This document shows, one piece after another, positions 53,231 through 56,029 of a stretch of DNA of 64,000 bases. The notes below the pieces were generated by a model. That model searched no databases. It had not been told where the DNA came from and saw only the letters and a list, made by a program, of their open reading frames with translations. Within the stretch, counting starts at the first letter, position 1. The number at the start of each line of letters is the position of its first letter. Made by a program: the position numbers and the translations under genes. The stretch is from positions 93,744,001-93,808,000 of the forward strand of contig OX597818.1 of the NCBI GenBank assembly GCA_951406725.2, read 5' to 3'. This DNA is from Octopus vulgaris (lineage: Eukaryota).

Positions 53231-54546
53231 GAATAATTACATTGTATGTTTGTCTGTCTGTGTTTGTACCCCACCATCGATTAACAACTGATGCTGGTGT
53301 GTTTATATCCTCATAACTTAGTGGTTCAGCAATGAGACCGATAGAATAAGTACTAAGCTTACAAAGAATAAGTCCTGGGGTTGATTTGTTTGACTAAAAA
53401 GCAACACTCCAGCATGGCCACAGTCTAATGACTTGAAACAAGTAAAAAAAAAAAAAGAACATATAAAATAATAAAAGAGGTACTGAAAAGTTCTTAACTT
53501 TAAGGGTATCACAAACCATTGTATATGTGTATATATGTGTGTATGTGTGTGTGTTTGTTCCCCCAACATTGCTTGACAACCGATGCTGGCGTGTTTACAT
53601 CCCTGTAACTTAGCGGTTTGGCAAAAGAGACCGATAGAATAAGTACTAGGCTTACAAAGAATAAATCCTAGGGTCGATTTGCTCAACTAAAGGCAGTGCT
53701 CCAGCATGGCCAAAGTCAAATGACTGAAACAAGTCAAAGGGTAAAAGAGTATATGGTTATGTGAATTGTTGCAAAATCACAATAATGTATATCTCAAAAT
53801 CTAGAGGTGATGAGTGAAAACTGGTTTTGTATCTGAAATCAGCACCTTAAAATTAGGCTAGAACAACTATTTTCATGTTTGCCTCTATTTCTCTATAAAC
53901 TAGTGTAATTGTTGACAATTTACATTAACCTAATAAATATACATTTGATTTAAAAGAAACAATATTAAAAAAAAAATTCTGCCTGAAAACAAATACTAAC
54001 TATTGAAACAATGAATTAATTATGAAAGCAGGTCTAGTCCACTACTATTTGTTTGTACAATGTTCTATTGTCAAATGGTGGCTCTTTTGAATATCACATG
54101 TGATGCAATAAGATAATGGAACGGATATAAAAGTAAAAAATATAACAGTTCATTTATAGGAAAGATCCTGATAGTTGTTAATGGGTTACAGATGTGTGGT
54201 TACTGATCATTGTTAGCTGTTTCTTTCTTTTTTAAAAATATGTTTGGAAACCATGTCTCCACTTTTGTTCACCATTCACCTATATCCCCATCTTTAACCA
54301 TCTGTCACTTTTCTCTCATATTCTTATAAATTTATATACCCACCAGTCCAGATTGTCTATATTCTCTCTTAGGTTCAACTTGTATTATACTCTGACACCT
54401 TGTCACCTTTTGACCCATAGAGTATATTGGTTAAGATACTGGGGTAGGTGGCCAGGTCTTTCCTCAGGCCAGAGCCATTTAGCCAGCATACTTACCATAT
54501 GCCGTTGCCACCCCCAGCACGAGAACAGTTGGACTTTGAAGGGGGT

Positions 54547-54660
54547 ATGCTTACAGCACCTAGGTTTCCTAAGCAGCCACCCATCTAAGTACTAACCAGG
54601 CTCGGCATTGCTTAACTTCAGTGATCAGACGAGAACCGGTGCTTTCAACGTGATATGGCC
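54547..54660 (-). pseudogene. 5S rRNA-derived sequence (lacks ~6 nt at 5' end; head of a putative SINE3)
   Basis: Minus strand reads GGCCATATCACGTTGAAAGCACCGGTTCTCGTCTGATCACTGAAGTTAAGCAATGCCGAGCCTGGTTAGTACTTAGATGGGTGGCTGCTTAGGAAACCTAGGTGCTGTAAGCA, a diverged metazoan 5S. No T-run terminator follows. Confidence 0.9.
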
Positions 54661-55399
54661 TGGAGGATAGCAGCAATGGAGTGAGGATTGGAGGAAGAAA
54701 TATTAACCTTCGCTATGCAGATGATACAACTCTGCTGGCAGAAAATAATAAGGATCTAGAGAATCTTATCCTGCCAGTCAAGAAAGAGAGTGAGAAATTT
54801 GGGCTGTACCTCAAAGTCAAGAAAACAAAGATCATGTCAACAGCAGCCACAACAAACATCAGCATCGATTGATAATGAAGAGATCAAAGTGGTTGATGAT
54901 TTCATCTTCCTTGGCTCCAAAATAAATTGAAAAGGTAACTGTACTCCAGAAATAAGGCAGCAGATAGTACTAGGCAGAGAGGCAATGGTCAGCATGAGCA
55001 AGGTCTGGAAGAGTAGAGACATCAGACTCACTACCAAATGCAGATTGGTGAATGCAATTGTCTTCCCAATAGCAACATATGGATGTGAAACCTGGACAGC
55101 GAGGCTCACCAATGGAGAAGTTCTTAACCAGATCAAGCCGAAACTGTCGCTAGAAGCTAGGATCACCAAGCATAGATTGACATATTTTGGTCATATTATG
55201 CGGAGAAGGACACCATGCTCGGAATGGTCAGTGGCAAGAGAGGAAGAGGCCGACCAAGAACCCATTGGCTTGACACCATCAAGTGTGACACAGGAATGAA
55301 CATAGCCAATCTATAAGAAGCGACCCAGGATAGAACTGGCTGGAGGACACTGATCCATCGAGTAACTAAGAGTCGACTTTGACTGAGCGGATGGATGAT
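54657..55399 (+). mobile_element. BovB-like RTE LINE 3' fragment
   Basis: GVRIGGRNINLRYADDTTLLA, YGCETW, YFGHIMRR. 3' end ...AAGAGTCGACTTTGACTGAGCGGATGGATG resembles the BovB tail. Confidence 0.9.
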
Positions 55400-56029
55400 A
55401 CCTTGTCACCACCATCTTTGTCTTCTTTTCAGCTACTTCCACCCATGTTATATAATGCAGGATAGCCATATATTTTCCCTCTAGCAAGACATCTATGCAG
55501 TGTGAACTGGGTGCTTTTAAGTGGCACCTGCACAGAGTCACCAAGTACTTGCAATAAGTGGCAGGATATTGTGAAGGAAGTATGATTAAAGAGTGCAGAG
55601 GGAGGGGAGTGAGTAGCAAAAACCTAGATATATATAGATTTGGAGGGCTACTGGATAGCAATGATACAGAGGAATATGGCTGTGAGGACAGGATTGGGGA
55701 GTGAGAATTAGGCATAGTGCATTAAGGAGGAAATAGCAATGATACAGAGGATTAGTGTATGAAGGGGAAATATGAGGGGAGATGTAGATTGGTTTGTTGG
55801 GGTAAGGTGAGTGAAAAGCTTTCTTGTTATGTGTGGGTGGAACTCGCAGGTTGGGGGCTAGCAGAACACAACGATACAGTGGTACAGGGCCAAGAAGACA
55901 GGACTGGGGAGTGGGAGGTAAGCATAGTGCATGAAGTAGAAATGTGAGGAAGAGAAGAGATGTAGTTTGGTTTGTTGTGGTAGAGTGCGTGAGAAGTTTT
56001 CTTAAGTGTGGATGCGACACACAGCACTT

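Follow-up and report, generated by a model that had tools for sequence, protein, structure and literature searches.

Within the 64,000 nucleotides of Octopus vulgaris DNA analysed here (hereafter the window), a segment of about 1 kb joins a copy of 5S ribosomal RNA (rRNA) to two pieces of retrotransposon that face in opposite directions. The question raised by this locus is whether it represents a family of 5S-headed mobile elements, as an earlier note on the sequence had proposed, in the form of either a short interspersed element of the SINE3 type or a long interspersed element (LINE) with a 5S-derived 5' end, or whether it is the product of a single event. Here we examine the parts of the segment and their junctions, together with related copies elsewhere in the genome, and find that the locus is a real, one-off, three-part chimeric insertion of an RTE LINE and belongs neither to a SINE3 family nor to a 5S-headed LINE.

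Structure of the insertion and its target site

The insertion and its flanks comprise the following features (coordinates within the window):

54250..54407, strand unassigned: left part of an older interspersed host repeat; 40 matches at 70-94% (best 40), contiguous with the right part in paralogs
54397..54407, plus strand: left copy of the target-site duplication (TSD), 11 bp, the final base being shared with the inverted piece (1-nt microhomology)
54407..54545, minus strand: inverted 5' end of the RTE LINE, element nt 1-148; 86-90% identity to four full-length 5' ends
54546..54548, minus strand: ATA, linking the 3' end of 5S to LINE nt 1; genomic 5S genes continue ATT or ATA
54549..54660, minus strand: 5S rRNA copy, nt 7-118; Rfam RF00001, 80 bits, E 2e-15
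54657..54660, strand unassigned: GGCC microhomology at the inversion junction, common to 5S nt 7-10 (minus) and LINE nt 2335-2338 (plus)
54657..55399, plus strand: 5'-truncated 3' piece of the RTE LINE, element nt 2335-3167; Pfam RVT_1, 88-91% and 81-86% to full-length copies
55400..55410, plus strand: right copy of the TSD, from the repeat match and empty-site paralogs
55400..55498, strand unassigned: right part of the older interspersed host repeat, from paralog matches to both flanks

The 11-mer ACCTTGTCACC at 54397-54407 and 55400-55410 has no other occurrence on either strand of the 64-kb window, and the chance of such a repeat arising by coincidence, allowing 10 nt of slack at each end, is ~5e-5. 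The target of the insertion was itself a repeat, with both flanks matched at 14 of 25 paralogous loci, and the paralogs L227, L213, L229 and L197 display the empty-site state, in which the left flank passes through a single copy of the motif into the right flank; L227 holds the exact 11-mer once. Because these paralogs hold the motif only once, the 11-bp repeat is genuine as a TSD, and the ~1 kb enclosed by it entered as one insertion, as the earlier note had read it. A coincidental repeat, which that note had named among the outcomes that would refute its reading, is ruled out by the probability estimate together with the single-motif paralogs. The left junction is also bridged by a contig carrying another organism label (run X16, record 9, 54051-54444), with 5 differences in 394 nt. 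In run X10, under another organism label and with the flank ~7% diverged, one contig match ends exactly at 54407 with 8 letters remaining, the RTE parts have no coverage and no joint across the insertion is among the matches listed; this is evidence neither for nor against an empty site. A six-frame reading of L227 revealed no recognisable coding content in the host repeat.

The inverted LINE piece consists of 5' untranslated region (UTR) with the conserved RTE motif, carries a 9-bp internal deletion and stops just before the start of the open reading frame (ORF). The 5S copy is 92-94% identical to the genome's own 5S genes and possesses neither a TSD nor a tail of its own; it is followed by ATA, with no T run or terminator, and these three bases are either 5S nt 119-120 plus one base or a variant of the 5S trailer. 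The Rfam match runs on to 54666, but its final six bases are RTE sequence. The GGCC shared across the inversion junction encodes codons G-L in the reverse transcriptase (RT) frame of the LINE, and the 3' piece that follows contains the end of the RT, the C-terminal region, the 3' end and a short GAT-type tail, decayed and with two internal deletions. Private substitutions amount to 6.1, 2.9 and 4.7% in the three parts, the 5S part being slightly more rather than less diverged; the parts are about equally old, and their similar divergence fits a single event. The locus is a dead copy, with no ORF, no means of serving as a source for further copies and no likely function.

Much of the earlier description of the sequence holds. 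Rfam and comparison with genomic 5S genes (nt 7-118) confirm a minus-strand 5S copy that lacks a T terminator, Pfam RVT_1 and the full-length copies bear out a plus-strand RTE 3' fragment on the right, and the alignments place the 4-nt GGCC overlap at 5S nt 7-10 and RT codons G-L as claimed. Two points required revision. The motif at the end of the body is RTE-derived, but it is not a tail: it is the RTE 5'-UTR motif, which continues into the ORF in other copies. Similarly, the join of a 5S head to RTE-derived sequence is real, but what follows the head is the start of the LINE itself rather than the body of a SINE with an RTE tail.

The RTE family behind both LINE pieces

A genome search with 54408-54555 (40 scored matches of 63 candidates) returned body matches that share one sharp start, many of them continuing into an ORF. 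Full-length elements of 3.1-3.2 kb were present in 4 of 12 longer stretches fetched, each starting at CCCC(C) with a very uniform 5' end, followed by a short 5' UTR and a single ORF of about 1000 aa in which an Exo_endo_phos (APE) domain precedes RVT_1. The best matches of the encoded protein are APE+RT proteins of ~1000 aa, among them those of cattle (54-55% identity) and the lizard Podarcis (57-59%), figures that express similarity and not position in a tree, together with entries named CFDP2 and F52C9.6, names that we take to mark BovB and RTE-1. Protein similarity and domain order thus support the BovB-like RTE identity suggested in the earlier note. Both LINE parts of the insertion derive from this 3.2-kb family (nt 1-148 and nt 2335-3167, compared with four full-length copies), while subfamily-diagnostic sites bearing on an origin of the two pieces from the same RNA molecule divide 5 versus 4 and 8 versus 11.

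The family resembles other LINEs of the RTE clade and BovB group in its length of ~3.2 kb, short 5' UTR, one APE+RT ORF, microsatellite tail and TSDs of 8-13 bp. In the available text of PMC4245944, RTE TSD lengths peak at 10-12 bp, a range that includes the 11 bp of the window; RTE TSD lengths also appear in the available text of PMC6007223, and the RTE 5'-UTR motif described in that of PMC5786205 is the one found in the left piece.

Recurrent capture of the RTE 5' end

Both sub-events that make up the insertion recur across the genome. For the 5' end of the LINE, 36 other 5'-end records gave 35 distinct copies, with L022 dropped (same place as L016) and L015 and L020 recognised as duplicates. 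Eleven are inverted head-to-head with a 3' piece, 12 are direct joins of 5' and 3' pieces with an internal deletion, 6 are long and 6 are solo. This sample was picked for covering nt 1-148; a fairer one is provided by the 17 exact matches to a 28-nt 5' pattern, which include 4 long, 4 inverted, 7 direct and 2 solo copies, and in which 12 of the 13 broken copies end at nt 134-286. Captured 5' pieces break just past the conserved 5'-UTR motif, a clustering of breakpoints for which the binomial P of 2e-25 is inflated by sample choice, the 17-copy sample being fair.

Viewed from the opposite end of the element, the first 30 of 949 exact RTE 3' ends in the genome comprise 28 plainly truncated copies (4 of them duplicates of one event), one with an inverted 5'-UTR piece (nt 109-161, TSD 12) and one direct copy; inversion from beside the truncation point was seen in 0 of these 30. 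Together, the 3'-anchored and 5'-end samples indicate that 5' capture accompanies a few percent of insertions and that inversions take the 5' UTR.

Thirteen inverted copies (the 11 of the 35-copy sample, the window and L165) were compared at their ends. TSDs of 8-13 bp lie within 25 nt of the tail in 10, two others have a 9-bp match after a long microsatellite and one has 7 bp only. The end of the TSD overlaps the inverted piece by 1-6 nt in 11 of the 13, and all 13 inverted pieces end at nt 148-233; the window copy shows 1 nt of microhomology at the priming end and 4 nt at the inversion junction. As all junctions differ, the inverted copies represent independent events and not a family.

Independent direct bipartite copies, each a 5'-UTR piece joined to the 3' end, were found at L007, L008, L011, L014, L026, L029, L073, L118 and L186; such copies are the raw form of Bov-A-like elements. 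Segmental duplicates sharing one RTE insertion occur at L171-L174 (C1, 76.9-77.2 Mb) and at L015 and L020 (C29).

Dispersed 5S copies fused to SINE-like repeats

A genome query with 5S yielded 1352 candidates, the best 40 of which were scored, and by eye 29 other 5S loci resolve into 7 in one rDNA cluster and 22 dispersed copies that run into repeat sequence. A 26-nt pattern from the 5S 3' end has 171 exact genome matches, dispersed or clustered, so that at least 171 such ends exist. We examined 70 of them, namely the first 30 and 40 of the next 46, omitting 3 rDNA-cluster loci and 3 already in the sample. At 30 of the 70 loci 5S adjoins one of three SINE-like repeats precisely where that repeat begins, at 24 the partner is a short tail motif, at 2 the join lies inside a fourth repeat, and 14 are unclassed (some, by eye, diverged copies of the first type).

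On the 5' side, dispersed 5S copies begin at nt 1 or close to it, and the DNA upstream is unrelated; on the 3' side they carry short trailers that represent at least two classes of 5S gene. The trailer tracks a 5S variant site in 24 of 28 and 15 of 15 readable cases, while trailers mix freely with partners, and distinct 5S-partner junction strings number 21 in 22 and 24 in 24. With junctions nearly all unique and trailers specific to gene class, these fusions represent independent RNA-level events. An automatic TSD search around 56 5S loci returned mostly microsatellite noise, with a control nearly as high, and TSDs are clear in only a few cases, such as L080 and L083; this rarity at 5S-SINE-like loci suggests that another LINE probably drives most of these fusions. 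The partners are termed SINE-like because a search for a tRNA origin found no Rfam tRNA match at E 0.05 at 3 loci. Without 5S, they occur in the 64-kb window as 8, 12, 1 and 11 matches.

Examples of full-length 5S retrocopies with short gene-specific trailers, joined to SINE-like or ~45-nt tail-motif partners, are L034, L061, L080, L083, L127 and L156. The tail-motif chimeras all join their partner at the same point, just before the short GC-rich motif (among them L035, L042, L047, L048, L059, L081, L087-L089, L094, L100 and L148), and this shared join marks either a preferred stop of reverse transcription or a short RNA starting there. The 5S rDNA cluster L053-L057 (C4, 35.30-35.33 Mb), with L033 and L058, consists of 4.9-kb units with 5S in both orientations and differing trailers nearby. 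Ordinary 5S rDNA spacer was considered for the window segment and rejected, as the true array units on contig C4 differ from it in this spacing, in T-run terminators and in shared flanks.

A model for the origin of the chimera

The 1-kb segment represents one isolated insertion of an RTE LINE, and we consider it likely that twin priming produced its inverted 5' end and that a subsequent template jump to 5S rRNA added the 5S copy. The RTE protein would have nicked one strand of the host repeat and reverse-transcribed its own RNA from the 3' tail to nt 2335. A second nick 11 bp away would then have supplied a 3' end that primed on this RNA around nt 148 and was extended back to nt 1. The priming site lies directly beyond the conserved 5'-UTR motif, a position that probably reflects the protein keeping this motif close to the cut. 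Running off the 5' end of the RNA, the reverse transcriptase would have jumped to the 3' end of a 5S rRNA and copied it to nt 7, after which the two cDNA ends could anneal through GGCC, with host repair closing the site. The order of these steps and the role of the motif are what we infer from the following observations.

The geometry that the earlier note had likened to twin priming is supported, with head-to-head pieces inside one TSD and microhomology at both ends. Twin priming is further suggested by the same geometry without 5S in 11 of the 35 other 5'-end copies, and by TSD lengths and 1-6 nt overlaps in the inverted copies that match its signature, an overlap between TSD end and inverted piece (available text of PMC2912911). 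A template jump is suggested by the exact meeting of 5S with LINE nt 1, which parallels the exact SINE-like 5' ends joined at 30 of 70 5S loci; as no other 5S-RTE chimera was found, this step is modelled on the SINE-like partners, which were probably moved by another LINE. In classical twin priming, known from L1, the inverted piece derives from the stretch of the same RNA immediately upstream of where the other piece is truncated, and the two are usually near neighbours. Here they lie at nt 148 and nt 2335, and this gap of ~2.2 kb counts against the model, as do the finding of no second 5S-RTE chimera of this family, the scarcity of convincing TSDs at the 56 5S loci, a priming homology in the window of only 1 nt and the fact that a template jump and RNA ligation leave indistinguishable DNA sequence.

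The readings that invoke an amplified family fare worst. Neither exact nor relaxed patterns of the 5S-RTE junction match anywhere in the genome but in the window, 5S is absent from 36 of 36 other body loci (29 plus 7 further), and no 5S-RTE chimera occurs among the 70 5S loci or the 30 3'-anchored RTE copies. The earlier note had expected either many genomic copies of 5S plus body or 5S-headed copies running into APE-RT ORFs; neither was found, and the single-copy state that it had set against its own proposal is, as regards a family, what the genome holds. Capture of a 5S-headed, RTE-mobilised SINE3 family as the second template is accordingly largely refuted and very improbable, even though a master could be low-copy or lost and SINEs composed of 5S, RTE 5' UTR and RTE 3' end exist (CoeSINE5, HaSE3, SINE-1_Pmo and Ped-1; available text of PMC5786205). 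The window has the 5S head of a SINE3, but a head-body junction shared by many copies is lacking, the body is the 5' end of a LINE, and in place of a same-sense LINE 3' tail the left element ends at nt 148 with the RTE 3' end on the opposite strand. A LINE family that itself carries a 5S-derived Pol III 5' end would place 5S directly 5' of LINE nt 1, as in the window copy, but is refuted for this RTE family: four of four full-length copies begin with CCCC(C) and no 5S, as do all other 5' ends in lacking 5S, and T4 runs at nt 500, 857, 1841 and 2839 would stop Pol III from nt 500 on.

Two further readings retain the RTE insertion and differ in how 5S was added. Ligation of 5S rRNA to the 5' end of the RTE RNA, with the chimeric RNA then inserted by twin priming, is unlikely but has the most in its favour of all these alternatives. 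RNA ligation by RtcB has reportedly been described for U6/L1 chimeras, and a self-cleaved RNA would carry a ligatable 5'-OH. The junction of the 5S 3' end with LINE nt 1 is exact, LINE copies vary very little at their 5' ends, and some RTEs have self-cleaving 5' ends (available text of PMC5786205). Against this, no Rfam family of self-cleaving ribozymes was detected in the 5' 500 nt of full-length copy L065, even at E 10, and 5S is fused in like manner to full-length SINE-like RNAs, whose 5' ends, made by Pol III, would be expected to bear an unligatable triphosphate. That 5S was instead added later, by separate insertion or recombination at the inversion junction of an existing 5'-inverted copy, we regard as less likely again, if marginally ahead of a captured SINE3: inverted copies without 5S and 5S retrocopies are both common, and the slightly greater divergence of the 5S part means that age gives no order of events, but 5S fits exactly between LINE nt 1 and the 3' piece with no TSD or tail of its own, GGCC is common to 5S and the 3' piece, and dispersed 5S copies nearly always have a downstream partner.

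Comparison with known chimeric and bipartite elements

Twin priming with a template jump onto 5S has its closest counterparts in mammalian L1. According to the available text of PMC11838501, 5S/L1 chimeras in which an antisense 5S begins at the junction, and for which twin priming was suggested, exist alongside tRNA/L1 chimeras, and that of PMC4476161 describes inverted U5/L1 as well as U1 and U2/L1 chimeras. Like these, the window holds one TSD-flanked insertion in which 5S lies antisense to a LINE 3' piece and its beginning marks the junction. In contrast to human 5S/L1, the driver is an RTE and not L1, and the 5S is 3'-complete and continues into the LINE's own 5' UTR, giving three parts, whereas the human 5S is 3'-truncated and was primed directly. 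The U6/L1, U6/L2, U6/Mon-1, U6/RTEX and U6/AnolisSINE2 chimeras (available text of PMC4476161) are similar in joining the 3' end of a small RNA in sense to a LINE or SINE RNA, and in being unique and unamplified; in the window the small RNA is 5S and it abuts the very first LINE nucleotide on the cDNA that was primed second. The genome as a whole contains at least 171 5S 3' ends, whether dispersed or clustered, most of which adjoin SINE-like repeats. As in chimeric retrocopies generally, a small RNA is here joined to a retroelement inside one TSD, with a unique junction and no amplification.

Compared with 5'-inverted L1, the window copy shares head-to-head pieces in one TSD and microhomology at the priming end and inversion junction, and differs in belonging to an RTE whose inverted pieces almost always consist of the first 130-235 nt, a long way from where the 3' piece is truncated. 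It also resembles Bov-A, Ped-1, CoeSINE5, HaSE3, SINE-1_Pmo and Ceph-SINE bodies (available text of PMC5786205) in its 5S head, RTE 5'-UTR motif and RTE 3' end; bipartite RTE and 5S+RTE SINE3s are, however, amplified with all parts in one sense, whereas the window holds a single copy with its 3' part in the opposite sense. Elsewhere, 5S fused to a tRNA head in Deu-SINEs is cited as a template-switch product (available text of PMC4824008 and PMC4758252). For octopus, the accessible portions of PMC13282606 report one recent '5S' SINE family with 7 insertions covering 42 kb and mention neither chimeras nor inversions, and those of PMC9115989 mention neither 5S nor inversion. A literature search, mostly of papers outside subscription, found no report of RTE 5'-UTR-directed inversion or of cephalopod 5S-SINE chimeras.

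What sets the locus apart from this literature is an invertebrate RTE family that regularly makes inversions aimed at one spot in its 5' UTR. This contrasts with the view of 5' inversion as nearly specific to mammalian L1, to which it has mainly been tied (PMC4245944 and PMC2912911, accessible portions), with one case from Nimb-2 in PMC4245944, and with the statement that template switching is the sole route by which L2 and RTE form small-RNA chimeras (PMC4476161, accessible portions). Furthermore, both steps can be mapped from the dozens of independent 5'-capture junctions and at least 100 independent 5S-capture junctions that the genome supplies, and the two genome-wide patterns make a stated open question testable. 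Both recurrent habits may show the birth of new short retroelements. We tentatively propose, as a possibility somewhat short of even, that the RTE protein holds the 5'-UTR motif at the second-strand nick, such that priming from the second strand, which gives the inverted copies, and jumping forward, which gives the direct bipartite copies, would both land just past it; combined with genome-wide 5S capping of cDNAs, the locus would then capture in one event the two steps that found a 5S-RTE SINE3. If true, retention of the motif at the nick would account for the repeated emergence of bipartite elements and SINE bodies from RTE and from hardly any other element.

To the right of the insertion, minus-strand sequence at 56080-56500, which has no match to the window's RTE family, resembles the 3' part of another decayed LINE, and positions 55645-56003 hold a degenerate repeat with a period of ~210 bp.
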